Source: a virus
Length of the DNA: 48,670 nt
Virus record (IMG/VR): IMGVR_UViG_3300027784_000001
Location: 1-48,670 of that record
Reading direction: 5' to 3' (one strand)
In this document: positions 1,823-46,850 of the stretch, one piece after another
Position numbering within the stretch: the first letter of the stretch is position 1
Layout: every line of letters begins with the position of its first letter
Made by a program: the position numbers and the translations under genes
Notes under the pieces: generated by a model
The model's input: only the letters and a program-made list of their open reading frames with translations
Told to the model about the DNA's origin: nothing
Database searches by the model: none

Positions 1823-2102
1823 CAGTAGTGATATACAGTGCGCCCTTCAGACAATGGATGCACTGAATGGAGACGCGGCTACAGTCCACCCTAATGCTAT
1901 CTCTACACACCCGCAAACTCCACATATGGAGTGTGGTAAATATAGAATAGTCCCAACTTTAAACGAGGGATATATCATAAGAGAACAAGGCCAATGGGAG
2001 CCAATATCCTGTAGCGTGGCAACTCCAATGGCAAGTGGTCCTGTCCTATTCGTGCTCTGCATCGCGATAGCTTATCAGCTAACTATAAAGCAGAAACGCT
2101 AA
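1815..2102 (+). CDS. Early hypothetical protein with a C-terminal transmembrane helix (GPVLFVLCIAIAYQLTI); visibly more AT-rich than the rest of the genome
   Basis: 95-aa ORF with a hydrophobic C-terminal segment, immediately followed by the strong terminator at 2110-2154. Confidence 0.55.
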   Translation: MSDSSDIQCALQTMDALNGDAATVHPNAISTHPQTPHMECGKYRIVPTLNEGYIIREQGQWEPISCSVATPMASGPVLFVLCIAIAYQLTIKQKR

Positions 2103-2109
2103 CTATAAT

Positions 2110-2154
2110 CCCCGCGGGTTAAGTGCACTCCAATCGGAGCACGGGCCCGCGGGG
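2110..2154 (+). terminator. Rho-independent terminator closing the early operon
   Basis: 9-bp outer stem CCCCGCGGG/CCCGCGGGG (2110-2118/2146-2154). An inner stem GTGC..CTCC/GGAGCAC has loop AATC. Followed by CCACTTTTA. Confidence 0.6.
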
Positions 2155-2161
2155 CCACTTT

Positions 2162-2178
2162 TACGAAACTTTACATTC
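2162..2178 (+). promoter_or_regulatory. 17-nt box TACGAAACTTTACATTC, identical to 46722-46738 (the box just upstream of sigma54-type site S1)
   Basis: Exact 17/17 identity between two intergenic hubs about 4 kb apart on the circle. A shorter version, AACTTTACATTC, is at 46838-46849. Confidence 0.5.
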
Positions 2179-2240
2179 TCGAATCCACCATGCACAAACC
2201 ATGCCAGCCAGTGGGATTTTCTGAAAATAATCTGAGCGGT

Positions 2241-2277
2241 GTTTCACCTCTGAAACGAGGTGTTTCAACAGTGAAAC
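2241..2277. promoter_or_regulatory. Two adjacent 16-bp palindromes GTTTCA-N4-TGAAAC (2241-2256 and 2262-2277), operator-like
   Basis: Both have perfect 6-bp half-sites. Each is preceded by GGT, and their start-to-start spacing is 21 bp (two helical turns). Confidence 0.5.
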
Positions 2278-2466
2278 AACAGTGGGGGGCAAGTATCGTG
2301 CCAAGCAAAAATTTTTTATATTCCGCCTTCCAATTCTGCCATAATCCACCGCCCACTTTCAGACTATCCGCCCTTATGACAAGCCGCCCTACAGAGCGCA
2401 CCTCCTGGACCGTAGGAGCCGAAGATAATTTTTCCGCAAGGGGGGTGCACCCTTTCAGCCAAAACG

Positions 2467-2484
2467 CCGTCACAGCCCGTCACA
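2467..2484. repeat. Two CCGTCACA octamers 10 bp apart; outlying members of the GTGACGG heptamer family
   Basis: CCGTCACA at 2467-2474 and 2477-2484. Confidence 0.6.
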
Positions 2485-2527
2485 ACCGCCCCCCTTCAGA
2501 GCGGCAAAATTTCGGAAGGATAGGGCT

Positions 2528-2542
2528 GTTACAATTTGTAAC
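2528..2542. promoter_or_regulatory. Perfect 15-bp palindrome GTTACAA-T-TTGTAAC, built from the same TTGTAAC half-site that is reiterated at 46547-46945
   Basis: Read directly. The half-site recurs at least 8 times in the 46.5 kb hub. Confidence 0.5.
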
Positions 2543-3109
2543 GGCGGAAGGTCGGCGCTTAAAGGCTTGCTATACTAGGCGGATGGGACCCCAAGAAGGG
2601 GTCCCCCTGTTTAGAGGCCGGAGCTGCCTCCACGAGAGATTTACCCAGAATCGCAACACACACCTACCGCGGGGGCGTAGCGCGGGTACACGCGGGGGCG
2701 CACGCACGTAGGCAGGCCGAGATACTGCGGAGAGGACCCTGAGAGTAGCAGCAGGGCCTATCAGAGGCATTCAGCAGGCAGGGGGCATGCCAGCACACCC
2801 GCAGCAGGGAAGAACGGCACAGGCCGCCCTACAGACAAGCAACATTACACCTACTCCGCCATCGGACGCGCCCGCCCGCGCATAGAGCCGCCGCAGCTGG
2901 CACACTTACTCCGCCCTCTGACCCGGCGGTCCTGCCATAGCGCAGTGCCTCTAGGGAGGCGCAGAGCTTCAGAAGGTCAGCAGGCCCCTGTCACAGCGCC
3001 CGCCGGCCCGATAGCGTGGCGCCAAGCGCAGCGCAAGAGCAGGCCACGCCTAGAGCTTAGGGCAGCGCACGGAGAGGCCGCACGGAGGGGCAGCAGGCCC
3101 GCAGGCCCG

Positions 3110-3475
3110 CCCTGTGACGGCTGTGACGGAGTGTGACGGCAATGTGACGGCCCCCCTGTCACAGCGGCTCGCCCGCCTATAGCCCCGTTTAACGCATCCG
3201 TGCACGGGCAGTGTGACGCTGTGACGGCTCTGCCCTATTACTATATATATAAAACATGCTTTTTTCTTAAATTCTTTCCATTTTCAAAATTCTACCAATA
3301 TAAGAGAGGGGTGTCACAAACGTACAAAAAATTTCTAATCTGGCGCTATTACTGGATTTCCGCTGTGACACCCACCCCGTCACAGTGCCGTCACAGGCCG
3401 TCACAGCCGTCACAAATTGCAGATTCCCTAATGATCTCGGGCACTTAACCCCGTCACAGCCCCCGTCACGGCCAA
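3110..3475. repeat. Iteron module A: arrays of TGTGACGG / CCGTCACA at helical spacing flanking an AT-rich (TA)n core (3233-3310); homologous to module B at 25538-25895
   Basis: Forward octamers at 3113, 3122, 3132, 3143, 3212 and 3220. Inverted copies at 3157, 3312, 3377, 3388, 3398, 3407, 3451 and 3463. Long blocks are identical to module B, e.g. GGCGGCTCGCCCGCCTATAGCC, CCCTATTACTATATATAT, ATGCTTTTTTCTTAAATTCT and GGGGTGTCACAAA. Confidence 0.85.
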
Positions 3476-3726
3476 AGACCACAAGGCTTGCTAGCGCGCT
3501 CGCAGAGGGAGGCTTATCACAAACCTGAGTCCAGCGGGCTGTTATCCCTAATACCTTTCGGCTGTGTGTCGACAAAAGGAGGTGGCCTAGCGGGCTATAT
3601 GGGACCCACGAGGTGCGTAGAGAGTGATAAGAGCCCCTGAGCTCCTCCTACCCCTCCTTGCGTAGATTTCGTTACTGTGTAGGTTTGACCTTGGATGGCC
3701 CCACTTTACTGACCAGAGAGGCTTAT

Positions 3727-4566
3727 ATGCAATTCGACCCCGAGGCAGCAAAACAACAGATACGCGACCTCCATAAGAGGGGGCTCAGCGTCAAGCAAAT
3801 AGCAGAGAAGACGGAGCTACACCACACCGCGGTGAGTCGGGAGCTATACGGCCACGACCACTACCTCATCCAACGGCGGATGGTCAAGCTGCTCGACAAG
3901 GGCTATAGCCGCAGGGAGATAGCCAACAAGCTCAACGTCGAATATGAGTTCGTCCTGACAGTGCTCTCGCGGGCAGGCCGCTCTGGTAGCGAAGATCGGC
4001 GCATGCTCTCCCCCGGCGACCGAGAAGACGCGCTAAAAATGTACATGAACGGGGCCACCGCGCACGAAGTGGGAGAGAAGTACGACCTCGCCGCACAGAC
4101 CGTCTGGAACCTCGCCTCTAAACACGGCGCCCAGAAGTCTGGGAATGAGGACTGGGAGAAAGACGCCATCGCGTACCGCGTACTTGTCAAGCGCCAGCGC
4201 ATGACCACAGCGCTACAGGGGCTATCGATGGGCCGGAGCACGGCGGTCTGGTACCGCTTCAAGGACCCCATCACCAACCCGGAGTTCTACCGCAAGCATG
4301 GCATCACCTATGACGATATTAAACACCGCTATCGCTTCAAGGGCACCACGGCAGAGATTAGCCGCTATTGGAAGGTCTACGTGGATGTGAACGAGAACGG
4401 CATGTCCTATACGGACGCGCAAGAGAAGTACGCCATCACCCGCTACAAGGTGCGGGATTCGGCCCAGCTGGGCTCAGTCAACGCCTTCGTGGCCTGCTGG
4501 GAGCTCGCCCTCCGACGGGGCCAGCTGCCTATTGGCGATAATCATACGTCTGATGGAGGCCAGTAA
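3727..4566 (+). CDS. DNA-binding protein with 4-5 tandem helix-turn-helix modules (terS/resolvase-type HTH repeats), first gene of the packaging cluster
   Basis: Repeated segments: RGLSVKQIAEKTELHHTAVSREL, KGYSRREIANKLNVEYEFVLTVL, NGATAHEVGEKYDLAAQTVWNLA and GLSMGRSTAVWYRF. ATG at 3727 with an AGAGAGG box. The listed ORF start 3658 is a TTG with no RBS. Confidence 0.7.
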   Translation: MQFDPEAAKQQIRDLHKRGLSVKQIAEKTELHHTAVSRELYGHDHYLIQRRMVKLLDKGYSRREIANKLNVEYEFVLTVLSRAGRSGSEDRRMLSPGDREDALKMYMNGATAHEVGEKYDLAAQTVWNLASKHGAQKSGNEDWEKDAIAYRVLVKRQRMTTALQGLSMGRSTAVWYRFKDPITNPEFYRKHGITYDDIKHRYRFKGTTAEISRYWKVYVDVNENGMSYTDAQEKYAITRYKVRDSAQLGSVNAFVACWELALRRGQLPIGDNHTSDGGQ

Positions 4567-5075
4567 TGGGAGAATTTGGGCCATCTGACTGGGACAAGGC
4601 CATCGAGGTCGCCAAGTACCGTGCTTTCGGCTACACGCAGAGGGAGGTAGCAGCCAAGGTGGGCGTAAGTGCCCCGACTATCTCGCGCTGGGAGAATAGC
4701 AGCTGGTGGGGGCAGGCCATCGAGGAGGCGAAGACGGGCGAAATGCGGGAGCTCGCAGGCCGGGCGCTCAATACCGTCCGCGAGGCCATCGAAGAGGGCG
4801 ACGTGACCACCGCCCGCTGGTACCTAGAGCGTACAGAGCCGCGCCTCTCTAAGAGTGGGAGCGGGGGAGGCAGCAGCCACAATGTGCAGGTCAACGTCGG
4901 CGTGGCCGGCGGGGGCAATGCGACCACGGAGGTTATCGAAGACGCCAACGGCAACACCCGCCGTATCGAAGATATGTCCGAAGAGGAGCTACGGGAGCTC
5001 GCCGGCGAGGACACTAAGGGCGAGATTATCGACCTCCAATTCGAGGAAATGAAGGGGGAGCTCAATGCCGATTAG
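4566..5075 (+). CDS. terS: Small terminase subunit-like HTH protein
   Basis: N-terminal HTH (GYTQREVAAKVGVSAPTISRWE), 169 aa, GGAGG RBS. Lies directly upstream of terL and overlaps it. Confidence 0.6.
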   Translation: MGEFGPSDWDKAIEVAKYRAFGYTQREVAAKVGVSAPTISRWENSSWWGQAIEEAKTGEMRELAGRALNTVREAIEEGDVTTARWYLERTEPRLSKSGSGGGSSHNVQVNVGVAGGGNATTEVIEDANGNTRRIEDMSEEELRELAGEDTKGEIIDLQFEEMKGELNAD

Positions 5076-6600
5076 CTCTAGACAGCGCGCGCAGCAGGCC
5101 CGTGCAGAGAAGGCCCGCCGGCGCCTTGCCCGCGTCAACTTCCGCGACTTCACACACTATACCTTTGAATCCTTCAAGGAAAACTGGCACCACCGCCGCA
5201 TCATGGAGATACTCCACGGGGCAGCCAACTTTGACCCGGAGTACAGGAAGACCATTATCACCGCTCCGCCCCGGCACGGGAAGAGCGAGCTCGTAAGCGT
5301 TCGGCTCCCCGCGTACTTCCTCGGCAAGCGCCCAGAGCTAGAGGTCCTCCACGTGACCTACGGCGACGACCTCTCCGAAGATATGGGCACCAAAGTGGGC
5401 GACGTGCTGGAGACCCAGCGCTTCCGCGAGGTGTTCCCCAACTTCCGGCTGGAGGGCCGGAACACGAAGCAGAAAAAGCAGACCCACAAGGGCGGCTGGT
5501 ACCGGGCTATTGGGCTCAAGTCCGGGGGAATCACCGGGACGGGCGCTAACCTCCTGATTATTGACGACCCTATTACCAACCGTAAGGCGGCGGAGAGCCC
5601 CAAGACTCGTGAGCATATCTGGGAGGCGTTCCAAGACGACTTGCTCTCCCGCATGGAGTTCCCGTGGGCGATCGTTGTACTGGCTACCCGCTGGCACAAA
5701 GACGACCTCACCGGGCGGATACTCGACGCCGACGATAAGGATGAGTGGAACCATATCCATTTGCCTTGGATATGCGACTACCATGAGTACGATGAGGAGC
5801 ACCCGGATTACGACCCGCGAAGCCCCGGCGACCCGCTCTGGCCCGGCGTGAGCACCAAGCGCGACTACGCGGCAATGGAGGGCGTTAACGTCGACCCGCC
5901 CAGCCACGAAGAGCTCGTCCAAATGGAGCTGGAAAAGGCCGAGAAGATGCAGCAAGACCGGCCCTATAAGTACTACTCCCTGTACCAAGGGCGCCCCATT
6001 GGAAAGTCGGGCAACCTCATCGCAGAGGCGTGGCTCAAGCAGTACAACTCCACCCCGCAGAAATTCGGTGCTTACTGCCAGAATAAGATCATCTCTATCG
6101 ATGCAAACCAGAAGGCCAAGGCCAAGTCTCAGACCAGCTCTGACGCGGCCATCGTTGTCGGCGGCCGGAAGGCCGACGGGAGCCTTGCCCTCCTCGATGC
6201 GGACTGGGGTAACTGGTCGTTTATCCAACTCAAAAAGCGCGCCAAGGTCATGGCCGAGAAGTGGCCGGGCTGTGCGCTCTTGATTGAGAATAAGGCAAGC
6301 GGCGCTGCGCTTATCAACTCGCTGGAGGACGATTACAAAGTCATCCCCTACGAGCCCAAAGGCGTGGGCAAGGTCGACCGGGCACTGACGCTGGCGGACT
6401 GGGCGGAGGCCGGCAAGGTGCTGCTGCCCACAAGAAAAAACGCCCCTTGGGTAGAAGAGGCCCGGACCATCATCACCGAGTTCCCTTCGCACCCAAAGGA
6501 CGACGTGTTGGACGCGCTAGCCCAGCTCGCGAGCCACTACGATAGCCGGTCGCACGGGCTCCAAGAGCTGCGCCGCGTTACTGGCTATGCTGATCGGTAG
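5065..6600 (+). CDS. terL: Terminase large subunit
   Basis: Walker A-like PPRHGKSE, Walker B LLIIDDP, ATRWHKDDLTGR motif, C-terminal nuclease-like DDVLDA. 511 aa, positioned before the portal gene. Confidence 0.9.
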   Translation: MPISSRQRAQQARAEKARRRLARVNFRDFTHYTFESFKENWHHRRIMEILHGAANFDPEYRKTIITAPPRHGKSELVSVRLPAYFLGKRPELEVLHVTYGDDLSEDMGTKVGDVLETQRFREVFPNFRLEGRNTKQKKQTHKGGWYRAIGLKSGGITGTGANLLIIDDPITNRKAAESPKTREHIWEAFQDDLLSRMEFPWAIVVLATRWHKDDLTGRILDADDKDEWNHIHLPWICDYHEYDEEHPDYDPRSPGDPLWPGVSTKRDYAAMEGVNVDPPSHEELVQMELEKAEKMQQDRPYKYYSLYQGRPIGKSGNLIAEAWLKQYNSTPQKFGAYCQNKIISIDANQKAKAKSQTSSDAAIVVGGRKADGSLALLDADWGNWSFIQLKKRAKVMAEKWPGCALLIENKASGAALINSLEDDYKVIPYEPKGVGKVDRALTLADWAEAGKVLLPTRKNAPWVEEARTIITEFPSHPKDDVLDALAQLASHYDSRSHGLQELRRVTGYADR

Positions 6601-6906: not shown

Positions 6907-8298
6907 ATGGCTAATGAGCAGTTCGAGGCTGTCCATGACAGCATCAAAAACTATATCACGAATGTCGGGACGAGTAAAGACCCGATAGAGCATGGGCGGC
7001 CATCATACGGAGAAAGGCTGACCCCTAACGAGCTCGATGCCGCCTTCGTACAGAATGACTTGGCCCGGCGTATCATCACCGAGCTACCCACGGACTCAAT
7101 CCGCACCGGCCTCCCGCCCATGGTCTACGCGGACACCGGGGAGAAGGTGGAGCTTCCCTTTAGGCAAGAGCGCGAGCTCATCGACAAAATTAAGATGGGG
7201 GCTATCAACGGGCGCCTGTACGGCGGCGCTTTCATCTTGTGCATCACCGAAGAGACCGAGAACCTCGCGGAGCCTATCGACTGGGATAACCCGCCGAAGG
7301 CCGTCAACACCATTGGGCTAGACCGCTATGAGGCCGTGCCCACAGAGTGGGGCAAGGATGCCTTCCGAGAGGACTTCCAAAAGCCCCGCTTCTACTCTAT
7401 CCACCCCCAAGGGCGATCCGCTAAGCATAAGCGCTACCCGCGAGTGCACCGCAGCCGGCTCCTGCCCTTCCACGGGAACAAGCTCCCCAAGCGCATTCGC
7501 AAGCGCAACCAAGACTACCACGACTCCGTGCTACAGGTTGTGTGGTCTTGCATCTCCCGCTATGTCCAGTCTGAGAAGTCGGTGGCCAATATCATCAACC
7601 GCTTCGAGATTGCCACTATGTCCATCAGTGGGCTGCGCGATGCTATGTCCACAGAAGAGGGCGTAGAGATGGTGGAAACGCGCATGGATATGCTGCACCG
7701 CAGCTTGTCTATACTCAAGCTTGCCATGATCGATGCTGACGCCGGCGAACAGTATAGCCGACAGTTCGCACAGGTGAACGGCTTGGAGCTCCTGCTGGAC
7801 CGGCTAGCCCAGTCTGTGGCGAAAGCTGCGCGGTATCCCATGACCCAGCTGTTCGGTGAGGACAGTGCTGGCATACGCGGAGACGACGAGGCCGGAGCCA
7901 AGGCTTGGCGAAAGCAGGTAGAAGAGTACCAGATTAATGATTTACTTGACCCTACCCTGCGACTGGTTAGTGTAGTTACTGGACGTAGAGTTGAGCCCGT
8001 GCGCTCTGCCGATGGCACCGTTAGATGGGGCCTCGCAGAGAGCCCTCGACCCATCGACCAAGCCCGAATTGATGAGAAGCGAAAGGACTGGGTTACTGGG
8101 CTACTGACCGACGGCGTTATTACCCTCCGAGAAGCCCGCCAACTCATGGCACAAGACGAAATTGACTGGAGTGACTACAGTGAAATTGAGGCCGACGACT
8201 ACAGCGGCGAAGCAGAGCCAGAGCCGGGAGTGGACCCTGCTGAGGGACCGGGCACCGAATCTGGAGCCCCTGAACCCGGAGGCGGAGTATCGGTATAA
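6907..8298 (+). CDS. Portal protein
   Basis: 463 aa from ATG 6907 (GAGG RBS), directly after terL, with an acidic C-terminal tail. Size and context fit the DUF1073-type portals that pair with the downstream scaffold/capsid genes. Confidence 0.75.
   Translation: MANEQFEAVHDSIKNYITNVGTSKDPIEHGRPSYGERLTPNELDAAFVQNDLARRIITELPTDSIRTGLPPMVYADTGEKVELPFRQERELIDKIKMGAINGRLYGGAFILCITEETENLAEPIDWDNPPKAVNTIGLDRYEAVPTEWGKDAFREDFQKPRFYSIHPQGRSAKHKRYPRVHRSRLLPFHGNKLPKRIRKRNQDYHDSVLQVVWSCISRYVQSEKSVANIINRFEIATMSISGLRDAMSTEEGVEMVETRMDMLHRSLSILKLAMIDADAGEQYSRQFAQVNGLELLLDRLAQSVAKAARYPMTQLFGEDSAGIRGDDEAGAKAWRKQVEEYQINDLLDPTLRLVSVVTGRRVEPVRSADGTVRWGLAESPRPIDQARIDEKRKDWVTGLLTDGVITLREARQLMAQDEIDWSDYSEIEADDYSGEAEPEPGVDPAEGPGTESGAPEPGGGVSV
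6950..6978 (-). promoter_or_regulatory. Candidate sigma70 promoter for the antisense gene: TTTACT-N17-TGaTATAGT (extended -10), embedded in the portal 5' coding region
   Basis: On the minus strand the -35 is at 6978-6973 and the -10 at 6955-6950, with TG at -15/-14. It lies about 55 nt upstream of the ATG at 6889. Confidence 0.4.
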
Positions 8299-9373
8299 CC
8301 GGGAAGCGCCAGAGCGGCCTGCCTCTGTAAAAGAGCTGCCTAACGGCTCTTGGGAAGTAGAGGGCTATCTGGCCGCCACCGGCGTACTCACCTACGAAAC
8401 GGACGTGCCGGAGAAGCCCTTCCAGTACGTGCCGGAATCGACGCTCAAGGCCTCGCTCGACCAGATTGCCGGGCTCCCGGTTACGATTGAGCACCCTCCG
8501 GGCCTGCTGGACCCGCAGAATATCAAGGCATACATTGTTGGAGTGACCAAAGAAGCTAAATGGGACGCCGATAAGGAGGCAATATGGGTTAAGCTGATTT
8601 TGTATACAGAGGAAGCCCACGAGGCCCTAGAGGATAAGCAGGGGCTATCCCCCGGCTATCTGGCTAATGTCGTACCCGGCGCCCCCGACGGCGTAGATGC
8701 AACGCATACACAAAAAGAAAGACGCTATAATCACATTGCTATCACGGCTGCTGGTCGTGGAGGAGAAGAGATGGCCCTACAAGTAGATTCGGAAGGACTC
8801 ATCGCCAACTTTGATGCTGCCGATGGCGGCAAAGACGAAGAAGAGCAAGAGGACGAGAAAGACGAGAAGCATGACGAGGAGGATGAGCAAGAAGAGGAGC
8901 AAGAGGACGAGAAAGAAGAACAAGAAGACGAAGAGCCCACGCTAGATGGCGTTATGGAGACGGTCGACGCGCTCCGGGCGCAGGTGGATGAGCTCAAGTC
9001 TACAGTCGATGCTATGAACGAGGGAGAGCAGACGGACTCTGTGCCTGTACATAAACAGATGCAAGAGTATGTTGGAGCAGTGAACACTGCCCGGATGCTC
9101 GGCGTCCAGTTTGACTCCGAAGATGATGCCGCGCAGATTAAGCGGAAGGTTGTCCAAGAGCGAGCGAAACGCGACGTGAGTAACGAGCGCCAAGGCTACA
9201 TTGACGAGAGATATCGCGCCATCGTCGATATGAACCCCCAAGCTGATTCTGTAGCGCACCTGTCGGCGGCCTTCGGCGGCAGCCCCTCGGACGACTCGCT
9301 GAATCCCGCTGAGGCCCTCGGCGACTTGCCCGCCCCCACGAACCCCTTCGACTCCCCCAAAGGAGATAAGTAA
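8162..9373 (+). CDS. Prohead scaffold/protease-like protein (DUF2213-like) with a long acidic low-complexity insert
   Basis: Positioned portal -> this gene -> capsid. N-terminal region has NGSWEVEGYLAATGVLTYE...LPVTIEHP. It carries a DEEEQEDEKDEKHDEEDEQEEEQEDEKEEQEDEE tract. The start is uncertain: no in-frame ATG until residue ~200, only TTG/GTG/CTG candidates inside the portal 3' end. Confidence 0.6.
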   Translation: MTGVTTVKLRPTTTAAKQSQSREWTLLRDRAPNLEPLNPEAEYRYNREAPERPASVKELPNGSWEVEGYLAATGVLTYETDVPEKPFQYVPESTLKASLDQIAGLPVTIEHPPGLLDPQNIKAYIVGVTKEAKWDADKEAIWVKLILYTEEAHEALEDKQGLSPGYLANVVPGAPDGVDATHTQKERRYNHIAITAAGRGGEEMALQVDSEGLIANFDAADGGKDEEEQEDEKDEKHDEEDEQEEEQEDEKEEQEDEEPTLDGVMETVDALRAQVDELKSTVDAMNEGEQTDSVPVHKQMQEYVGAVNTARMLGVQFDSEDDAAQIKRKVVQERAKRDVSNERQGYIDERYRAIVDMNPQADSVAHLSAAFGGSPSDDSLNPAEALGDLPAPTNPFDSPKGDK

Positions 9374-10155
9374 TGAGTATTGAACAGAGAGCAGTACTAC
9401 GCAACTTGCCCAAGGGGAACCTCGGGCGCATCCTTTCGCCTCCGTACCATACGGAAGTGATCAACATGCCGTTTACGGAGCGGACGCCAGCTTCGTTTGA
9501 CTTCACAGTTATGGAAGCTGAGGCTGGAGACTATACCATCGTAGTTGATGGCGAGGCCGTGACCTACACCGCGGAGTCCTCGGATTCTGTCATGGATATT
9601 GCCGAGGGGCTGGTCGATGCAATCAACGATAATTTTATCGCTTCCGCCTCTGTTGTCGCAGAGGGGAACCAAGACGATACGTTTGTCCTGACGGGCAAGT
9701 CCAAGCTAACTACTTACGACGTGAGTATCCAGTCGGGCGACCTCTTGCTTACGACCACGGACGGTGATATGGGCGAAGCCTTCCCTGTGGCCCATCCGGT
9801 CTATGCTGACGACGGCATGGCCTCGCTTGAGCCTCCCGAGGGCACTTCCCACGTTGACGCCCTGATTGGATTCAGCGCCTACCGCTATGACTCTGAAAAG
9901 ATGACTATTGGCGGCAGCGGCCTGCTGGCCGGTACCGGGCTCGACCTCTTCCATTACGCGCCCTCGGATATTCTCGTTATCTTGCGAGATGGGCGAATCT
10001 TGGTAGACGTGCCGGGAGCCAAGGCGGGCATGCCTGCTTACCTCGGAGTGGACGGCGACGATGAGCACCAGTTGTTTGCCGAGGACGGCCCTGACCGCGA
10101 GGCAGTTCCGGGCCTGAGCTTCGATGAATCCGACGAATTGCGAGTGAAACTCTAA
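9373..10155 (+). CDS. Head protein of unknown role (possible decoration or scaffold accessory protein)
   Basis: 260-aa ORF with an AAGGAG RBS, between the scaffold-like and capsid genes. Confidence 0.6.
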   Translation: MSIEQRAVLRNLPKGNLGRILSPPYHTEVINMPFTERTPASFDFTVMEAEAGDYTIVVDGEAVTYTAESSDSVMDIAEGLVDAINDNFIASASVVAEGNQDDTFVLTGKSKLTTYDVSIQSGDLLLTTTDGDMGEAFPVAHPVYADDGMASLEPPEGTSHVDALIGFSAYRYDSEKMTIGGSGLLAGTGLDLFHYAPSDILVILRDGRILVDVPGAKAGMPAYLGVDGDDEHQLFAEDGPDREAVPGLSFDESDELRVKL

Positions 10156-24032: not shown

Positions 24033-24760
24033 TGACTAAGCTGATACATATTTCTGATTTACATATGCACGACTTCCGCTTCTCCGGGAATATGGTAGCG
24101 GCCACTAGGAAGCTGGTGCGCCGCATCATAAAGCAAGAAGACCCCGAGGAGTGCGTCGTCGTTATATCCGGCGACCTCGTGAGCTCTATGACAGAGCGGG
24201 AGAAGATTAGCGCGCTCTACGCCCTTCTGCCCCTTAAAGAGGCAGGCTTCCTAGTCGAGGTCTCCGAGGGCAACCATGATAACGGCCCGCTGGGGCTCAT
24301 CCTCCAAGACAGCGCTGTGCAGCACTTCAAGGCACTAGTAGAGGAGCTATGCGGCTACCGGCCCGACGACTATCCGCACCACGTAGAAGTCGGGGAGCTC
24401 ATCATAGTAAACATGAATAGCTCGCGCAGCCAGACGTTCCTAGCGAGTGGCCGGCTGGGTACAGAGCAGATGGACCGGGCGCAGGCGCTAATCGACGCGG
24501 CCCCGGACAAACACAGCGTGGTGACGTTCCACCACTGCCCCAGCAGCGGTAACCCCACTAGGCGGCTTAGCGACCGCATGGAGTTGAAAGAGCGCATCGA
24601 CTGCGACCTGATGCTCGTCGGGCACTTACACGAGGATAGGGAGTGGAGCAATACCTTCGGCGCTCGCCGGCTGATGAGCGTAGCGCCTAGCGCACGGGAA
24701 GACAAGTACAGGCGTATCTGGTTTACTGAGGAAGGAGGTATAGAATGGGACTGGGGCTGA
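24032..24760 (+). CDS. Calcineurin-like metallophosphoesterase with CpdA-type (class III cyclic-nucleotide phosphodiesterase-like) motifs
   Basis: Ordered motifs: ISDLHMHD (DxH), ISGDLV (GD), GNHDN (GNHD), TFHHCP (H), VGHLHED (GHxH). Confidence 0.8.
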   Translation: MTKLIHISDLHMHDFRFSGNMVAATRKLVRRIIKQEDPEECVVVISGDLVSSMTEREKISALYALLPLKEAGFLVEVSEGNHDNGPLGLILQDSAVQHFKALVEELCGYRPDDYPHHVEVGELIIVNMNSSRSQTFLASGRLGTEQMDRAQALIDAAPDKHSVVTFHHCPSSGNPTRRLSDRMELKERIDCDLMLVGHLHEDREWSNTFGARRLMSVAPSAREDKYRRIWFTEEGGIEWDWG

Positions 24761-25209
24761 GGCATCTACAAGACAAACTCGACAAGTGGGGTATCGAATA
24801 CTTCCGGGCAGAGGAGCTATGTAGGTTCCCCCGCTGGGGCGAGGTATCGGCGCCGCCTATTAAGCTACAGCGGAACATCCGTCCTACCGTAGAGTTCGCC
24901 GATGAGCTGCGTAGGCAGTTCGGGGCCGCTATTCGGTGCATCAATGGGTACCGTAATTACCTATACAACCGCGAAGTCGGCGGCGCACCGCAATCAGAGC
25001 ACCTATCCTTCCGCGCGATGGATATACAGCCTCTTGAGTACACCCAGCCGGCCATGGAGCGGCTTCGAGCCCTCGCCGTGGAGCTCGCTGAGGAGTGCGA
25101 AGGCGACGTGCGCATACTCCAATATGACAAGTTCATCCATGTGGACTTTGGAGCGGCAGATTGGAAGACTAGGGACCCGGAGAAACTAGACAACCGTACA
25201 AGGAGATAA
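24745..25209 (+). CDS. Endolysin, peptidase M15 family (zinc D-Ala-D-Ala carboxypeptidase / L-Ala-D-Glu peptidase fold)
   Basis: Motifs SEHLSFRAMD (SxHxxGxAxD-like) and FIHVDF. 154 aa, located next to a membrane lysis protein. Confidence 0.75.
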   Translation: MGLGLRHLQDKLDKWGIEYFRAEELCRFPRWGEVSAPPIKLQRNIRPTVEFADELRRQFGAAIRCINGYRNYLYNREVGGAPQSEHLSFRAMDIQPLEYTQPAMERLRALAVELAEECEGDVRILQYDKFIHVDFGAADWKTRDPEKLDNRTRR

Positions 25210-25215: not shown

Positions 25216-25563
25216 GTGGAACAGGCCATTATAACCATAGCCTCAAGCGCAGGAGGAGGGGCGGCCATCATCGGCCTAGTGCTCTACCTGCTGGTCAAGC
25301 GGATGAAGCACCGGGAAGACCATAAGCTAGAGCTAGAGCGCCTCCGCGCAGATAGCGAAGAGGGCCTCTACCACCGCCTTCGGGCCGACGTAGAGCGCTC
25401 CCATGATGCGCTGGGCAGGCAGCGCGAATATATCCAAGTGTTGGAGGCCCGCCTACGGCAGTGTTCCCTCTGCGATGATTGCCGCGAGCGCACCGACCTG
25501 CCCCCAGCGCAAGCGCCACCCGGCGAGGGCGTTGACGACTGTGACAGCTGTGACGGGGTGTGA
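25216..25563 (+). CDS. Membrane-anchored lysis protein (holin or i-spanin-like): N-terminal TM helix, coiled coil and a Cys-rich tail
   Basis: GTG start with an AAGGAG RBS. TM segment IITIASSAGGGAAIIGLVLYLLV. The last 7 codons (CDSCDGV) are encoded by the first iterons of module B. Confidence 0.6.
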   Translation: MEQAIITIASSAGGGAAIIGLVLYLLVKRMKHREDHKLELERLRADSEEGLYHRLRADVERSHDALGRQREYIQVLEARLRQCSLCDDCRERTDLPPAQAPPGEGVDDCDSCDGV

Positions 25564-25895
25564 CGGCAATGTGACGCGGGGGGTGTCACGGCGGCTCGCC
25601 CGCCTATAGCCTCGGCTAAGCGATCTGACCGGGCTAGATGTGACGGCGTGACGGGGTGGCCCTATTACTATATATATATAATATGCTTTTTTCTTAAATT
25701 CTGTACAGATTGAAATTCCTACTAACTTATAGAAGGGGTGTCACAAATGGGGGAACAAAGCCGAGATCCGAGGCTATAGCTGGCCGATACGGTGTGACGG
25801 CCCCCCTGTCACAAGGGTGTCACAAGGCCCGGTAGCCGTCACAAAACGCCGATTCCTCAACGATTCCAGGCACTTAGCCCCGTCACAAGCCCCCC
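25538..25895. repeat. Iteron module B: second copy of the GTGACGG/CCGTCAC + (TA)n core module (core 25660-25735)
   Basis: Forward copies at 25540, 25549, 25559, 25570 (spacing 9/10/11, as in A), 25639, 25648 and 25793. Inverted copies at 25584, 25739, 25807, 25818, 25836 and 25880. Confidence 0.85.
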
Positions 25896-26002
25896 TCGGC
25901 GCACGGCTATTCGGCCATATAGGGGCTTTATCCTCGCCATACGACGAAAACAACGGGAGCTTGGCGCGCTTGGCGCGAGGGCAAGGGGGGCCGACCCTTC
26001 AC

Positions 26003-26030
26003 TTGACATTCAGCCTGCTTTTGCTATAAT
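26003..26030 (+). promoter_or_regulatory. Near-consensus sigma70 promoter for the replication module: TTGACA-N16-TGcTATAAT
   Basis: -35 TTGACA at 26003-26008. Extended -10 TG at 26022-26023, and TATAAT at 26025-26030. It lies 57 nt upstream of the ATG at 26087. Confidence 0.7.
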
Positions 26031-27926: not shown

Positions 27927-30314
27927 ATGAATGTTACTCTATTTAATCGGCTAAACGTTCCGGGCTGGTCCGGCCAAGGCCGCTGCACGACCCCCCGTGC
28001 TCCTGTCATGACACTCGAAGAGGCACTGGCCAAGCAGAGCCGCGGCGCGCTCCTCATCTGCGGGTATGCCCCGCTAGACGAAGACAAGGCCCAGTGCCCC
28101 CGCCTCCTTAAGTCCTCTATCGCCCGCTTTGGGGCCTCGCGCTATGCCTACACTGCGGTGCTTGTTGATATTGATTACGAAGACCACGAAGTCCCCCCGG
28201 ACAACTGGCACAAAGGGGTGCTGGGCAAGGTCGCCAGTACCGACTTGCCGGCGCCGGCGTGGTACCGCACGCCCCACGGCATGCGGCTGGTATGGCAGCT
28301 CGAAGCTGCTATCCCCCTCAAGTTCGCCGATAGCGCCAATGCTATGGTCCACCGTAAGCTCAATGCTGCGGGCATCGCTACGGATACGGGCACCACGGAC
28401 TGGACGCGGATGTTTTACGGCCCGTTCGCCCGCGGCAGGGACCTGCCCCACGGCAGGCTTGACGACGTGCCGGAGCTGGCCATCGACCCTGCAAACCACG
28501 AGGAGGCCAAGCCCAAGTCCCTCGGCGAGACCACGGCCCGCGACCGGCCTGCCGACCTCTCTGAGACGGTCAAAAGGGCGGAGTTGCAGCCGGTCAAGAG
28601 CGTGAACAAACAGCTGGCCGACGACCTCTACCGGGGCGCGCTGGGAGCGCCTGTGGGCAAGCGGCATGCCACACTGCTTAAGGTGGCTCTAGAGCTCTCC
28701 TTTATCTACGAGAGCGCGGACCCACTAAAGCCCTACCGCCTCCTGTACAACTCTTGCGTCCAGATGGGCAAAGACCCCGCGGAGCTCTGGCGGATATGCG
28801 AATGGTCGGCAGCTGCCTTTGCTGGCCACCTAGAGGAGACTGAGGAGGACCGTAAGAGGGCCATGAAACAGGCCCGAGAGGCGTTGGACTGCGACGGCGA
28901 AGAGATTGAGCAGCAGCTCGTGCTAATGCAGAGCCCCGAATACTACGTCTGGGATTCCACGGAGCGGACTTACTCGCACGCATACACCGACAAGGCCCAG
29001 ATACTAGCGGCCCTCAAGCGCCACTGCCCGATGCTGGCCATGGACCCCATCTGGGAGGCCATGCAGAACCGGATTATCCTCCGAGACTACTCCAGCCCGC
29101 TCCGTCGGGTTATCTACTCCTACAACGCGGACTCTGCCCACTATGATAAGGACTACCAAGAGCTCCTTATGCCCACGGCCAAGCAAGACCCGGAGCTCAT
29201 CCCTACCTACCACGAAGACGTAGCGGGCTGGCTATCTGCGCTCTTCGGGCCGCACGAGCAGCGGGGCCTCAACTGGCTTGCGGCTTATCCCCGCCTAGAC
29301 CGTCCGGTCTGTGCCTTGTATGTCAACGGGCCCAACTCCATCGGAAAGGGGCTCTTGGCCGTTGGCCTAGCCCGGCTCCACTCTCGCCATGGGGAGTTCA
29401 CAAAGTACGGCGAGATCGTCAACCAGTTCCAGTCTAGCTTCGCCCACTGCCCGCTGGTTGTGGCCGACGAGAAGGTCCCTACTGACGCCTTCACTAAGAA
29501 CGACTCTTCGCTCTTCCGCCAGTTGGTAGGTAACGGCACGCACTCTGTCAACGAAAAGAACCGCTCCGAGTATACTGTACTCGGGTACCCACGGGTACTC
29601 ATCACTGCGAATAACGAGGATGCGCTTGCCATCCGCGAGGACCTCAACTCGGAAGACCTAGAGGCGATTAAACGCCGTGTTGGTTATATCGATAGAGGAG
29701 CGGATAACGCCGCCGAAGAGTACCTTGTTGAGATGACTGCCGACCGCGGATTTGAGAATACCCACGACTTGACAGAGAGTTGGGCGGATGGTAGAATCGC
29801 GGAGCACGTCCTGTGGCTCGAAGAGAACCACGAGTACAAGGCCGACCAAAGGTTTTTAGTGGAAGGCTGGAGCTCGGACTTTACGGAGAGCTTAGTCACT
29901 AATGTCGGCAGAGCCGGCGAGATAGCTGAGACGGTTATTATGGCAGTCGCACAAGACTACAATTGCCCCGGTATCCGGTGGTTTGATGGCAAGCTGTTCG
30001 TTAATGCCAACGGCCTGATTAGTAACTGGAGCAATATCCGTAATAACGACTTCGATAAGCCGCCCAGCCCGCATAGCCGCACCAAGGCCCTGCGCTCGCT
30101 GGCGAACAACTCCAAGAAGCGGCTCCGGCGGCAGGGCTCGATGAAACGCTACTGGGAGATTGACGCGACGGTGCTGGCCCGCCTCGCTGATAGCCAGAAC
30201 ATCATGGACCCCGATAGCCTGATAGCGGCCACGTCCCGAAGCAAGGACAAAGATAAAGAGCACAGCAACGGCGGTAACGCCGGTACTTCTAACAAGATAG
30301 TGGAGATGGGATGA
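27927..30314 (+). CDS. Bifunctional primase-polymerase / D5-like (SF3) helicase
   Basis: N-terminal prim-pol-like VLVDIDYEDHE and TPHGMRLVW. Central P-loop NGPNSIGKG and Walker B LVVADEK. 795 aa. Confidence 0.65.
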   Translation: MNVTLFNRLNVPGWSGQGRCTTPRAPVMTLEEALAKQSRGALLICGYAPLDEDKAQCPRLLKSSIARFGASRYAYTAVLVDIDYEDHEVPPDNWHKGVLGKVASTDLPAPAWYRTPHGMRLVWQLEAAIPLKFADSANAMVHRKLNAAGIATDTGTTDWTRMFYGPFARGRDLPHGRLDDVPELAIDPANHEEAKPKSLGETTARDRPADLSETVKRAELQPVKSVNKQLADDLYRGALGAPVGKRHATLLKVALELSFIYESADPLKPYRLLYNSCVQMGKDPAELWRICEWSAAAFAGHLEETEEDRKRAMKQAREALDCDGEEIEQQLVLMQSPEYYVWDSTERTYSHAYTDKAQILAALKRHCPMLAMDPIWEAMQNRIILRDYSSPLRRVIYSYNADSAHYDKDYQELLMPTAKQDPELIPTYHEDVAGWLSALFGPHEQRGLNWLAAYPRLDRPVCALYVNGPNSIGKGLLAVGLARLHSRHGEFTKYGEIVNQFQSSFAHCPLVVADEKVPTDAFTKNDSSLFRQLVGNGTHSVNEKNRSEYTVLGYPRVLITANNEDALAIREDLNSEDLEAIKRRVGYIDRGADNAAEEYLVEMTADRGFENTHDLTESWADGRIAEHVLWLEENHEYKADQRFLVEGWSSDFTESLVTNVGRAGEIAETVIMAVAQDYNCPGIRWFDGKLFVNANGLISNWSNIRNNDFDKPPSPHSRTKALRSLANNSKKRLRRQGSMKRYWEIDATVLARLADSQNIMDPDSLIAATSRSKDKDKEHSNGGNAGTSNKIVEMG

Positions 30315-31579
30315 GTGATAGTAAAGAAGAGTTCGACCCGAAAGAATTGTGGATTTCTTCCACGGCGATTAGCCGCCGGATAGACTGCGACCGTAAATTC
30401 CGGTATGACCTTGACCACGGCATCAATATCGGCAGCGACCACTCCCGATGGGGGAACCTGTACCACGATGCTATGCAGGCTTACGTGCACTTCGATATGG
30501 ATAGCATGGAGGGCTTAGAGGCCGCCATGGCCGAGGTCCCTACGGGGGACTACGGCGAGAATGAGCTCCCCCACGAGGCATTCTATGAGGACGCCCTGCT
30601 GGGCGACGACGAAGAGCCCGGCACCCGGCTTATGTGGCCCGACGTGAAGCGCCGAGTAGAGGACACCATCGGCTCGGAGCACTTCCAGACAATCATCCGC
30701 GAGTATTCGCCTGTGGCAGAGAAGAACGTCTACGACTGGAAGGTCCCTCTGGGCGACCACGGCACCGTCGGCCACGGCCATATTGACCTCTTCCATACGC
30801 GCGAAGACGGCACGCCTGTTGTGTCTGACTACAAGACCCGCGGCTCGCTGGGCTACGCCCCCCGCACCGCGGAGGATTTCAAGAAGTTCCCCCAGACCGC
30901 CTACTATGCCTCGCTTGTCTACGCGCATGCCAAGGCCACCGGGGAGTGGGAACCCGCTAAGGGCGTAGTCGTCGCGCATATCAACGTGGTGCGCGATTCC
31001 ACGGGCTACCCGCCGACCATCTATAGCCACCACTATAGCCCGGCCTACTTGGAGTCGTGCCTCAACTACTTCAACATGTTCGTGAATGATGCCATCGAAG
31101 ATGCCCGCAAGGCGCCCGAAGACGTGGAGCCAAACCGGGCTTCGTGCTACAAGTATGGGAAGCCGTGCCCGTACTATGATAACTGCCCCGCCTATAATCC
31201 CCACGGCTACACGGGGCTTAAGTTCCTCATCTGGCATAATCAGCAGAATGCAGATAAAATTAAATTCGAGAAAGGTGAAGAGATGAATCCAAATAGCCCG
31301 CAGTGCGGCGATAGAGTCCTCCCTACTCCCATCCCCGAAAAAGAGATTGACGTGCTCGATGGCGTCACTCCCCGGCCCAAAAGCAAGCTCCACGGAGTCG
31401 AGGTCTATACCCTCGCGCAGCTTGTGGCCTATATTATGGAGCACGGAGGCCTAGACCACCTCAGCTACGTGGGCAAGGTGACTGAGGGTAAGATTGCCGC
31501 TTCGCTGGCTGAGTACTGGGTTTCGTTTGAGGACGCCACTGCGGAAGAAATGGAGGTGCTAAATGAGCTCGCCACCTGA
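30311..31579 (+). CDS. PD-(D/E)XK nuclease of the Cas4/RecB type with Fe-S cluster cysteines, plus a C-terminal extension
   Basis: N-terminal Cys (RIDCDRKF), catalytic HIDLF...VVSDYKT, and C-terminal CYKYGKPCPYYDNC. Confidence 0.7.
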   Translation: MSDSKEEFDPKELWISSTAISRRIDCDRKFRYDLDHGINIGSDHSRWGNLYHDAMQAYVHFDMDSMEGLEAAMAEVPTGDYGENELPHEAFYEDALLGDDEEPGTRLMWPDVKRRVEDTIGSEHFQTIIREYSPVAEKNVYDWKVPLGDHGTVGHGHIDLFHTREDGTPVVSDYKTRGSLGYAPRTAEDFKKFPQTAYYASLVYAHAKATGEWEPAKGVVVAHINVVRDSTGYPPTIYSHHYSPAYLESCLNYFNMFVNDAIEDARKAPEDVEPNRASCYKYGKPCPYYDNCPAYNPHGYTGLKFLIWHNQQNADKIKFEKGEEMNPNSPQCGDRVLPTPIPEKEIDVLDGVTPRPKSKLHGVEVYTLAQLVAYIMEHGGLDHLSYVGKVTEGKIAASLAEYWVSFEDATAEEMEVLNELAT

Positions 31580-32423
31580 GATTGACCTGACGAAGGACTA
31601 CGAGCCGCTAGAGGCTGCCGAGTGCGACCGCCTTGTGGTTGCATACCAGCAGGGCGATAAGGAGGCGGGGCGGCGTGTTGTGCTCTCCATCATCCCCTTC
31701 CTACTGGGCAGCTCGCCGCAGGCGGGTGCCGGCGGGGGGACCTACTTCAAGGGCCACGAAGACTGGATACCGTTCGGCGTTATCCAAGCGTATAAGGCGA
31801 TGGATACCTACAAGCCCGAGGGGGGCCGTACCTTCCTGAGCTGGCTCCGGTACTACATTTCCGGCTACCGCAGGTATAAGCGCTACGACCGCTACGGAAT
31901 GCGGTTTAGCAGCTCTGCCAGAGTCCGCAAGGTACTGAGCCGATGGCACGAGCTCAAAGACTACAGCACCGAGGAGCTCTGCGACTGGTTAATCGAAGAC
32001 GGGATGGACCCTAAGATAGCCCGCACTTGCGCCATATCTCTCCACCCGCGCCGCCCGTCTCCGATGGATGATGAGGCGTTCCGCGGCGTGCCTTGCGGAG
32101 GCAGCCCGGCGCAGGCTCTATGGGCCCGCGACGTGGCCATGGAGGTGGCGTCTCCCCCTGCCCAACAAGCCAGCGTAGATAGCGCTCGCGATGAGCTCAT
32201 GGCAATCATTGGCCCCGCCCTAAAGGAGCTCACCGAGGAGAACCGCGTCATCTTTGAGCTGCACTATCTCCACGAGGTGCCGGCAGTTAAGATAGCCGAT
32301 GACCGCGGCCTGAGCCGGCAAGCTATCTCTCTACGCTACCGGAAAGTGTGCAGGCATATAGCCGACCACGTAGCCGAAGAGTACGGTGAGGATGCAAGGG
32401 AGCGTGTACTTGAGGTTATTTGA
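31563..32423 (+). CDS. Phage-encoded sigma-70 family sigma factor (group 3/4-like)
   Basis: Region 2-like FGVIQAYKAMDTYKPEGGRTFLSWLRYYISGY. Region 4 HTH LTEENRVIFELHYLHEVPAVKIADDRGLSRQAISLRYRK. Confidence 0.7.
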   Translation: MSSPPEIDLTKDYEPLEAAECDRLVVAYQQGDKEAGRRVVLSIIPFLLGSSPQAGAGGGTYFKGHEDWIPFGVIQAYKAMDTYKPEGGRTFLSWLRYYISGYRRYKRYDRYGMRFSSSARVRKVLSRWHELKDYSTEELCDWLIEDGMDPKIARTCAISLHPRRPSPMDDEAFRGVPCGGSPAQALWARDVAMEVASPPAQQASVDSARDELMAIIGPALKELTEENRVIFELHYLHEVPAVKIADDRGLSRQAISLRYRKVCRHIADHVAEEYGEDARERVLEVI

Positions 32424-42569: not shown

Positions 42570-43159
42570 ATAACAGCAAATACGATAAATGGATTGACTA
42601 CAATGACTTATGGGTGCGAGGGGCTTGCGAGAAGGGGAGGGTACTATTTGATAAGCTGTTTGGCCGCCACGGCAGGCTGCACGCGGGAGATAGCGGACTG
42701 GCCGGGCTATTGCTGCACGAAGACGCAAGGCAGCATATCGGATGGCTAGTCGATCAAGGTCTGTTGCGGGTAGACATGGAATGGTGGGACCTAAGCGGTA
42801 TGGACCTCAGATACCTTCAGCTTAGCGATGCGTATGTAAGGGCCTGTAATTTCGCGGGGGCGAGCCTCTTAGATAGCTCGATAGCTGGGCGTGGCCTTTT
42901 TGTATGCTGCGGCTTCGCGGGGGCAGACCTCCGGTTTTCGCGGCTGAGTTACTCCCAGTTTACGCGCTGCAACTTTGAAGGGGCAGACTTGGGCGGTACG
43001 AAGCTTAGGAATTGCAATATTGCCAGCTCATCGCTCCGCAACGCACGAGGACTAAATACGGCGTATTTTCACGACTGCACGATGCTTGAAGAGCAGCGCC
43101 GCACCCTGGTAGATGCAGGAGCCAATGTTTATAATCCCGTCATCGTAACAGGAGAGTAA
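42566..43159 (+). CDS. Pentapeptide-repeat protein (paralog 1)
   Basis: Repeats run from LSGMDLRYLQLSDAYVRACNFAGASLLDSSIAG through FAGADLRFSRLSYSQFTRCNFEGADLGGTKLRNCNI. ATG 42566 with a GGGGAGG RBS and ATGA overlap. Confidence 0.8.
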   Translation: MNNSKYDKWIDYNDLWVRGACEKGRVLFDKLFGRHGRLHAGDSGLAGLLLHEDARQHIGWLVDQGLLRVDMEWWDLSGMDLRYLQLSDAYVRACNFAGASLLDSSIAGRGLFVCCGFAGADLRFSRLSYSQFTRCNFEGADLGGTKLRNCNIASSSLRNARGLNTAYFHDCTMLEEQRRTLVDAGANVYNPVIVTGE

Positions 43160-46720: not shown

Positions 46721-46740
46721 GTACGAAACTTTACATTCGT

Positions 46741-46756
46741 TGGCACGAACCTTGCA
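46741..46756 (+). promoter_or_regulatory. Sigma54-type -24/-12 element S1: TGGCACGaaccTTGCA
   Basis: Exact fit to TGGCACG-N4-TTGCW. Confidence 0.7.
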
Positions 46757-46794
46757 TGCGCGGACTCGCCCGCGTTACATTTCTTTTCACGCGC

Positions 46795-46810: not shown

Positions 46811-46850
46811 TTCAAAAATTCCGGCCTTCGCAACACAACTTTACATTCGT

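Follow-up and report, generated by a model that had tools for sequence, protein, structure and literature searches.

This locus raises the question of what role is played by two facing arrays of short repeats, separated by an AT-rich stretch and located immediately upstream of the packaging genes of a tailed phage. A first-pass annotation had offered two answers: an origin of replication used by the phage's own primase-polymerase (prim-pol)/SF3 helicase, as in satellite phage P4, or a pac site resembling that of P1, with the multi-HTH or the terS-like protein encoded downstream as its reader. The comparisons described here support the former well and point to binding of the arrays by this helicase, while the latter found no support, as a second full copy of the module lies 22 kb from the packaging genes. 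The module is probably an iteron-plus-unwinding-element replication origin of the self-loading primase-helicase type, present as two paralogous copies in this genome, with the phage helicase as its putative initiator.

The window, meaning the whole 48,670-bp stretch of DNA analyzed here, begins and ends with the same 99-bp direct repeat (1-99 = 48572-48670), and thus corresponds to a circular assembly of 48571 bp; it derives from JGI 3300000557 (SL_8KL_010_SED) and SRR490134. Nearly all of its genes are on the + strand, and no tRNAs were found in it. TerL shares at most 31% identity with that of any cultured phage, and no nucleotide match to the region 2100-3730 was found among GenBank phages. 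The multi-HTH protein retrieved no homologue but itself among 5.8 billion proteins at the sensitivity of the search used. Searches of IMG/VR with TerL peptides and a 19-mer of the AT-rich core gave no true match (locus L001 was a chance (TA)n match), and the conserved 20-mer ATGCTTTTTTCTTAAATTCT picked up 35 loci in a metagenome scan, every one of them a chance match of 20-26 nt. A literature search for the octamer yielded primer sequences only.

The four octamers TGTGACGG of the + strand and the four facing them on the opposite strand (CCGTCACA) were recovered exactly where the first-pass annotation had placed them (Table 1). The window contains 18 exact octamers, against 1.00 +/- 1.2 expected from dinucleotide-preserving shuffles, and this count was reached in 0 of 100 shuffles. 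The imperfect inverted repeat proposed around position ~3263 was also found by a repeat search, with arms at 3113-3167 and 3360-3414 (55 nt, 84% complementary, centre 3263.5), and the AT-rich stretch of ~80 bp claimed within it coincides with the lowest-GC 80-bp segment, starting at 3228 (GC 0.25 vs 0.58 for the genome). At least 18 copies of the GTGAC core had been counted between 2467 and 3470; there are exactly 18, at 2469-3469. Genome-wide, this pentamer is clustered but not enriched (69 found vs 64 expected).

The grammar of the module is nevertheless richer than plain four facing four. Each half-module consists of four direct outer sites, one inverted site that forms the palindrome TGTGACGG-C6-TGTCACA, a spacer of ~45 bp and a direct pair at the core, and the second half is the mirror of the first. 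Each module comprises about 14-16 octamer sites; in copy 1, 4+2 sites lie on the + strand at the left and 1+4+2 on the - strand at the right. The core of copy 1 holds (TA)5, TATATATATA at 3242-3251, and a 44-nt block, CCCTATTACTATATATATA.AA.ATGCTTTTTTCTTAAATTCT, that is almost unchanged in copy 2. The single-strand fold of the module has a z of -9.5, which restates the inverted repeat only, and Rfam gave no match either at gathering thresholds for the whole window or at E <= 1 for 2000-3800.

Table 1. Coordinates of the two modules and of associated genes and promoters in the window.
Feature	Position	Strand	Remarks
Two outlying exact TGTGACGG sites	2467-2484	-	630 bp left of copy 1
Further outlying TGTGACAG site	2988-2995		Left of copy 1
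Copy 1 left outer array, four exact TGTGACGG iterons	3113-3150 (starts 3113, 3122, 3132, 3143)	+	Spacing 9, 10, 11 bp
Copy 1 inverted site TGTGACAG	3156-3163	-	With the 3143 site, palindrome TGTGACGG-CCCCCC-TGTCACA
Copy 1 left inner pair TGTGACGC, TGTGACGG	3212-3227	+	Adjoins core
Copy 1 AT-rich core, presumed DNA-unwinding element	3228-3310	.	GC 0.25 over 80 bp
Copy 1 right inner site TGTGACAC	3311-3318	-	
Copy 1 inverted site TGTGACAC	3364-3371	+	Pairs as palindrome with first site of right outer array
Copy 1 right outer array, four exact TGTGACGG iterons (CCGTCACA on +)	3377-3414 (starts 3377, 3388, 3398, 3407)	-	
Copy 1 two distal right sites TGTGACGG, CGTGACGG	3451-3470	-	
Multi-HTH protein	3727-4566	+	At least 3 Pfam-supported HTH units, ~5 by eye; copy 1 ~250 bp upstream
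HTH_3 protein, terS-like	4566-5075	+	Pfam HTH_3; weak terS PHROG matches
TerL	5065-6600	+	
Copy 2 left outer array TGTGACAG, TGTGACGG, TGTGACGG, TGTGACGC	25540-25577	+	Overlaps 3' end of ORF 25216-25563
Copy 2 degenerate inverted site GTGTCACGG, GGCGGCTCGCCCGCCTATAGCC block and left inner pair	25584-25654	.	Inner pair at 25639-25654
Copy 2 AT-rich core	25655-25737	.	GC 0.25 over 80 bp from 25662
Copy 2 right half	25738-25887	.	Four site groups (next four rows)
Copy 2 right inner site	25738-25745	-	
Copy 2 right-half inverted site	25793-25800	+	
Copy 2 right outer array	25806-25843	-	3 of 4 sites kept
Copy 2 distal right site	25880-25887	-	
Sigma-70-type consensus promoter TTGACA-16-TATAAT	26003-26030	+	Between copy 2 and replication operon
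Primase-polymerase/SF3 helicase, 795 aa, DUF5906	27927-30314	+	~2 kb downstream of copy 2, three ORFs between

The paralogous second module, missed in the first-pass annotation, extends over ~360 bp from 25539 to ~25900, at an offset of 22427 bp from copy 1 (3112-3475). Alignment of 3080-3500 with 25507-25930 gave a mean column identity of 83% (MAFFT), or 73% when a gapped global alignment is scored over every column. Copy 2 contributes six of the 18 exact octamers (25549-25887) and 13 GTGAC cores. The features kept between the copies are the iterons, the GGCGGCTCGCCCGCCTATAGCC block, the 44-nt stretch of the AT-rich core and the right flank, and the similarity stops at ~3475, past the inverted repeat. 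This boundary argues against taking the module for a duplicated recombination site, for a centromere used in partition or for a MITE, a mobile element that is not autonomous and whose 55-nt terminal inverted repeats would contain several transposase sites. Such a reading is in line with the presence of two ~360-bp copies, with terminal inverted repeats built of repeated sites starting with TG, and with the occurrence of arrays on multiple contigs of some MAGs. It is rendered highly improbable, moreover, by the positions of the modules, kept in relatives at 36-51% protein identity though the sequence diverges, and by the failure to find any relative of the module sequence beyond the arrays themselves. 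In addition, Pfam detected no transposase, ParA/ParB or recombinase among 30 ORFs, a set outside which lie the structural block (~6.8-24 kb) and several small ORFs.

Each copy heads a long co-directional operon, copy 1 that of the packaging and late genes and copy 2 that of the replication genes. The lysis genes, which end with Peptidase_M15_3 at 24745-25209 and the ORF 25216-25563, precede copy 2, and the replication block past it encodes, according to Pfam, the DUF5906 protein, a PD-(D/E)XK nuclease, a Sigma70_r4 protein (31563-32423), a ResIII helicase and PolA, a family A DNA polymerase. Copy 1, for its part, is 24.5 kb from the helicase gene. Such a layout would also suit operator/enhancer regions of the late and replication operons, in which the core would act as promoter and the multi-HTH protein, the Sigma70_r4 protein or the helicase as regulator. 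This would agree with the sigma-70-like promoter past copy 2, with the sigma-like protein of the phage and with a 10/12 promoter-like match on the - strand in the core of copy 1; the last, however, has no counterpart at the same place in copy 2. Promoters resembling that at 26003-26030 were read by eye in the relatives L201, L232 and L233, past the module and before the helicase gene. Origins often serve as regulatory regions too, and this function is compatible with an origin, so that both may coexist.

The GC and AT skew of the genome is governed by its one-strand gene layout and locates no origin; the detrended cumulative GC skew peaks at 25800, within copy 2, with a sign opposite to that of a classical origin. 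A candidate for another origin site is the AT-rich repeat region at 46540-46720, composed of ~17 phased 10-bp repeats. However, five sigma-54-type promoter matches come after it, which makes an upstream activator or bent-DNA region more likely.

The relatives of the window helicase associate the module with this protein. Eight non-identical homologues were found (36-51% identity), and in every homologue locus examined (P0002, P0005, P0006, P0007 and P0009) the intergenic stretch that directly precedes the helicase gene had the same module grammar. In the syntenic relatives L201, L202, L233 and L234, the module region comes directly after lysis/Metallophos genes. Opposed iteron sets flank an AT-rich centre in the modules of L201, L202, L233, L234 and L204 and in copy 2, as in copy 1, but the iteron word varies by lineage. 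It is TGTGAC(G/A)(G/C) in L201 and L233, a TGTGAC/TGTTAC mixture, TGT(G/T)ACAC, in L234, TGTTAC in L202 and TGTGAGCT in L204/L205. A fixed architecture with a drifting word is what would be expected of an origin co-evolving with its initiator. The alignment of the helicases gives a hint in the same direction, as the residues at the start of the predicted wing appear to track the iteron word, being (K/Q)RTLR in two TGTTAC users and KKRLR or QKRIR in TGTGAC users.

The two-copy layout recurs in two of these relatives. The contigs of SRR24555988 that carry the homologues of the helicase (L232) and of TerL (L207) open with a common sequence (57 nt, 93% identity), located 148 bp ahead of the helicase gene on L232 and 274 bp ahead of the multi-HTH-like, terS-like and TerL genes on L207; the simplest reading is an assembly break in a repeat found at both places. 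The pattern TGTGAGCT-N1-3-TGTGAGCT-N8-20-AGCTCACA has exactly two matches in all IMG/VR, both on IMGVR_UViG_3300002446_000155. One belongs to a helicase-proximal module (L272) and the other to a complete second module (L271, continuing into L273), which is 95% identical to the first, apparently inverted, and followed by tRNA-Met, a 141-aa ORF, tRNA-Ala and tRNA-Pro. Module identity is 73% and 95% within the window and this second genome, respectively, vs 47-59% between genomes, a range that we would expect to be close to that of unrelated sequence under this scoring. The higher identity within genomes suggests that both copies are kept at one specificity per genome.

The position of copy 1, 250 bp upstream of the multi-HTH, terS-like and TerL genes, nonetheless calls for considering a pac site. 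Copy 1 would be, or would double as, this site, with the HTH_3 terS-like and/or the multi-HTH protein binding the arrays and TerL cutting in or near the core. The three HTH units supported by Pfam (~5 by eye) could match four sites one helical turn apart, the place before the packaging operon recurs in L207 of SRR24555988, and a circular assembly is compatible with headful packaging. However, this would explain neither copy 2, which is a full module 22 kb away beside the replication genes, nor the association with the helicase, beside whose gene the module was found in all the helicase relatives examined. The closest relative by TerL (L206, 57% identity) carries multi-HTH, HTH_3 and TerL genes, but no TGTGAC or GTCACA hexamer occurs in its 8.2 kb and there is no intergenic gap before its multi-HTH gene; the arrays are thus no obligatory partner of packaging genes. 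In addition, no homologue of the multi-HTH protein was detected beyond this phage, and identical arrays elsewhere accompany primase-helicases, with no multi-HTH or terS-like homologue nearby. A pac function of copy 1 therefore seems unlikely.

These identical arrays came from a scan with the pattern TGTGACGG-N1-3-TGTGACGG-N1-4-TGTGAC, for which less than one match is expected from base composition alone. It was found at 79 loci in IMG/VR and at more than 120 in genome collections. Control scans of IMG/VR with two permuted octamers of matched composition returned 18 and 4 loci, indicating that short-repeat arrays are common in viral DNA. The TGTGACGG word is several-fold over-represented in IMG/VR, in part because one phage group gives ~20 of the loci. 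The loci have no nucleotide likeness to the window beyond the array itself, and in many of them, in DNA of 36-69% GC, convergent arrays surround an AT-rich core.

Clustering of every ORF located up to 4 kb from an array gave primase-helicases as the largest family, in 73 loci. They comprise at least 26 groups at <35% identity and several architectures, such as DnaG Zn-ribbon/Toprim/AAA_25, D5_N/DUF5906/Pox_D5, PriCT_2/VapE and DUF3854; a DUF927 protein adjoining the array of L175 is an extra case outside the dominant family. Of 61 arrays placed relative to the helicase gene, 51 lie directly past its stop codon, nine within its 3' end and one upstream, with a median distance of 116 bp. Near these arrays no homologues of the window's multi-HTH or terS-like protein were detected, and the only terminase-related matches were distant TerL proteins at four loci (L010, L020, L075 and L027), 1-3 kb off. 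No regulator co-occurs with the arrays across loci, and in those 51 elements the arrays occupy the 3' end of a helicase gene and not the head of an operon, two observations that make an operator role about as improbable as a pac site.

The helicase itself is consistent with an origin of the self-loading type. The AlphaFold2 model of the 795-aa protein (pLDDT 71) matched the folds of ASFV PrimPol, the NrS-1 helicase region, poxvirus D5/E5, SaPI PriRep1 (7pds), SaPI5 Rep (7ola) and the AEP domain of S-2L PrimPol, with E values from 4e-6 to 5e-2 for D5/E5, NrS-1, ASFV PrimPol and SaPI Rep, whereas the helicase-family profile had no match by sequence among solved structures. Pfam detected no Toprim or Zn-ribbon DnaG domain in it, and its N-terminus matches the AEP prim-pol fold (S-2L PrimPol and ASFV PrimPol). 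The last 144 residues were modeled separately (pLDDT 80, pTM 0.74) and gave a topology of helix / two short strands / helix / helix / beta-hairpin, from which residues ~680-770 (29965-30236) are predicted to form a winged-helix domain. The best PDB matches of this model were winged-helix DNA binders, all weak (E >= 0.04), among them TcpK bound to oriT (probability 0.97, E = 0.04), the PU.1 ETS domain, PadR, RTP and Cdt1; P4 alpha (1KA8) was absent among the 50 matches listed. Weak as these matches are, the predicted fold class would fit that of the origin-binding domains of P4 alpha and pRN1 ORF904 (PMC2777425). The C-terminal domains of the TGTGAC-associated helicases had no detectable sequence similarity to that of the window helicase, and for that reason a mobile winged-helix plus ori cassette is unsupported.

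Among characterized systems, the origins of SaPIs and Gram-negative PICIs are located directly 3' of rep and consist of two opposed sets of iterons on either side of an AT-rich centre, to which the self-loading helicase Rep binds by its C-terminal winged helix (PMC9371898, PMC6092414). The arrays of the 26 unrelated groups match this published layout. The module of the window likewise has short iterons in two opposed sets, with at least two per side and an AT-rich melting region between them, and its helicase model matches the SaPI proteins PriRep1 and Rep. It differs in having ~14-16 octamer sites and a palindromic grammar, in contrast to the 6-12 penta- or hexamer iterons of SaPIs, in lying 5' of the helicase gene and in belonging to a full 48.6-kb tailed phage with a duplicated origin.

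A second parallel is offered by phage P4, whose octamer iteron, TGTTCACC, is common to ori and the distant crr, both of which P4 needs; the two are unlike in structure and 4.5 kb apart. As in the window, an octamer iteron is present in two separate cis regions and the protein is a primase-SF3 helicase fusion; in P4 this protein, alpha, binds both regions by its C-terminal domain. However, the primase part of alpha is of the DnaG type, whereas the fold matches of the window protein are to AEP prim-pols, and the copies of the window are full paralogues 22.4 kb apart, with no sequence similarity to P4. The pac site of P1, for its part, consists of 4 + 3 hexamers carrying GATC Dam sites. Its clusters of short repeats also flank a central region, upstream of or inside packaging genes, but pac is single-copy, while TGTGACGG lacks GATC, occurs in two modules and belongs to arrays that track primase-helicases. 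The C-terminal domain of P4 alpha is a winged helix (PDB 1ka8; PMC2777425).

The duplication has its closest counterpart in phage SPP1, with oriL in the replication module and the similarly built oriR in the late/packaging region, both bound by gp38, where oriR has been proposed to stall forks and set off the switch from theta to concatemer replication (PMC6316719). Both phages thus have two distant regions of repeats and an AT-rich unwinding element, one of them in the late region. SPP1 differs in dividing the task between gp38, which binds the origins, the loader gp39 and gp40, a helicase of the DnaB type, whereas in the replication block of the window Pfam detected neither a DnaB-type helicase nor a loader; furthermore, oriL lies within gene 38, and its repeats are direct, in contrast to the dyad-symmetric ones of the window. 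By analogy with oriL/oriR of SPP1 and ori/crr of P4, copy 1 may be a second firing origin, or else a barrier or looping partner.

Taken as an origin, the module would be used as follows. The winged-helix C-terminal domain of the prim-pol/SF3 helicase would bind the TGTGAC(G/A)(G/C) iterons, and the two convergent sets of sites would load two helicase assemblies head-to-head, flanking the 80-bp AT-rich core. The core would melt, and the same protein would prime synthesis both ways by means of its prim-pol domain. Copies 1 and 2 would both stay matched to one initiator specificity, and the second copy could either fire as an origin too or, with the initiator bound to it, serve as a partner or roadblock that promotes the change to concatemer synthesis close to the packaging genes. 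The analysis shows the anatomy of the module, its duplication, the recurrence of both in relatives, the link with primase-helicases and the predicted fold class of the protein; helicase binding, melting, firing and the role of the second copy are inferred, the first of them from co-occurrence and co-variation.

The evidence for an origin includes the arrays beside primase-helicases, the module beside the helicase gene in relatives, the word varying by lineage and the predicted C-terminal winged helix. Counting against it are the place of the module upstream of the helicase gene here, vs directly downstream in SaPIs and 26 other groups, the weak C-terminal fold matches, the skew, which marks neither copy, and the arrays of permuted octamers in IMG/VR. 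A more ambitious proposal joins two claims, namely that the origin pair is functional, with one copy firing and the other acting as fork barrier or looping partner, and that TGTGAC(GG) is a shared origin word; their joint truth is rather doubtful. Under this proposal, the partner copy at the head of the packaging operon, kept matched by concerted evolution, would couple replication to concatemers, late transcription and packaging, and use of the TGTGAC(GG) origin word may be common to 26 or more primase-helicase groups that are not otherwise related and come from phages, prophages and a virophage-like element.

These results provide two concrete candidate origins for an uncultured soda-lake phage lineage without cultured relatives. 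The SaPI/P4-style origin of self-loading helicases would thereby be extended to full-size tailed phages, in a version that, judging from sequence comparison, would depart from those known by its elaborate dyad-symmetric grammar, its place upstream of the helicase gene, its duplication and the concerted evolution of its copies. The co-evolving copy before the packaging genes offers a tractable system in which a second origin, a fork barrier and a looping partner could be told apart, a question that bears equally on oriR of SPP1 and crr of P4. The occurrence of one octamer beside many unrelated primase-helicases provides a simple signature for the prediction of origins in metagenomic mobile elements. 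If true, a shared TGTGAC(GG) word would let satellites and helpers mimic each other's origins, or would indicate a common but cryptic domain for reading DNA.

Convergent arrays of the identical octamer TGTGACGG were located directly 3′ of the gene in no fewer than 26 primase-helicase groups, which share less than 35% identity and differ in domain architecture (array loci L002 to L200 of the public collections; for instance L028, L025, L046, L156, L175, and L006). No homology was detectable among the C-terminal domains of these array-associated primase-helicases. Convergent arrays of TGTGACGGG flanking a T-rich core were also found at 300-900 of L039, a very AT-rich IMG/VR contig whose products include an rve integrase and a protein with a major capsid domain of virophage type (MCP_V20_C); a helicase was not seen in this 4.3-kb contig.

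In the window, the detrended cumulative GC skew reached its maximum at 25800, inside copy 2, the iteron module preceding the replication operon. The skew was positive across the late operon and then negative for approximately 2.5 kb, and this maximum may originate from replication or from gene content alone. In L273, which carries part of the second module copy of a TGTGAGCT-lineage relative, the module is followed by tRNA-Met, a 141-aa ORF, tRNA-Ala, and tRNA-Pro (309-1121); no tRNA gene occurs in the window phage. L232, a locus of a relative of the window helicase, encodes an 863-aa product (7284-9875) after a PD-(D/E)XK nuclease gene and two small ORFs, and its weak LAGLIDADG_3 match hints at the insertion of an intein or homing endonuclease.

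Upstream of copy 1, the module preceding the packaging and late genes, lies approximately 1 kb of GC-rich DNA (2103-3110) without a convincing gene, the ORF at 2190-2711 having a GC3 of 0.53 versus approximately 0.7 in real genes. Rfam gave no match in 2103-3110. The palindrome in this region is similar to the TGTTAC iteron of the relative L202.

Repeat and promoter-like features in the window
Feature	Position	Strand	Context
Single additional sigma-54 consensus match	2289-2304	-	
Two further TGTGACGG sites	2467-2484		outlying, left of copy 1
Palindrome CTGTTACAATTTGTAACGG	2526-2544		left of copy 1
TGTGACAG site	2988-2995		left of copy 1
Phased 10-bp repeats, ~17 units (TTTGTAACTT / ATCGTTAAAA / TTTGTTAAAT)	within 46540-47010		
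Five tandem matches to the sigma-54 consensus	46741, 46795, 46851, 46906, 46994	+	

The window is a circularised assembly, as shown by the exact 99-bp direct repeat at both ends (1-99 = 48572-48670), and the true length of the phage genome is 48571 bp. Close to one end, the tandem sigma-54-type matches sit within 55-bp repeat units after the phased 10-bp repeats; approximately 0.09 matches to this consensus (TGGCAC-N5-TTGC) would be expected over the whole window. Beyond them, 47045-48224 holds three to four repeated units of approximately 90 nt, each with a sigma-70-like promoter (GCGCTTGACA-17-TATTTT) followed by small ORFs, an arrangement that resembles a cluster of reiterated early promoters. 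Two closely spaced genes encode pentapeptide-repeat proteins (42551-43159 and 43370-43987), for which a role in DNA mimicry or anti-defence is conceivable.

For the late operon, no good sigma-70 promoter was found upstream of 3727. The phage encodes a protein with a Sigma70_r4 domain (31563-32423), whose homologue in L234, another helicase-relative locus, has Sigma70_r2. This protein may serve transcription of that operon as a phage-encoded sigma factor.
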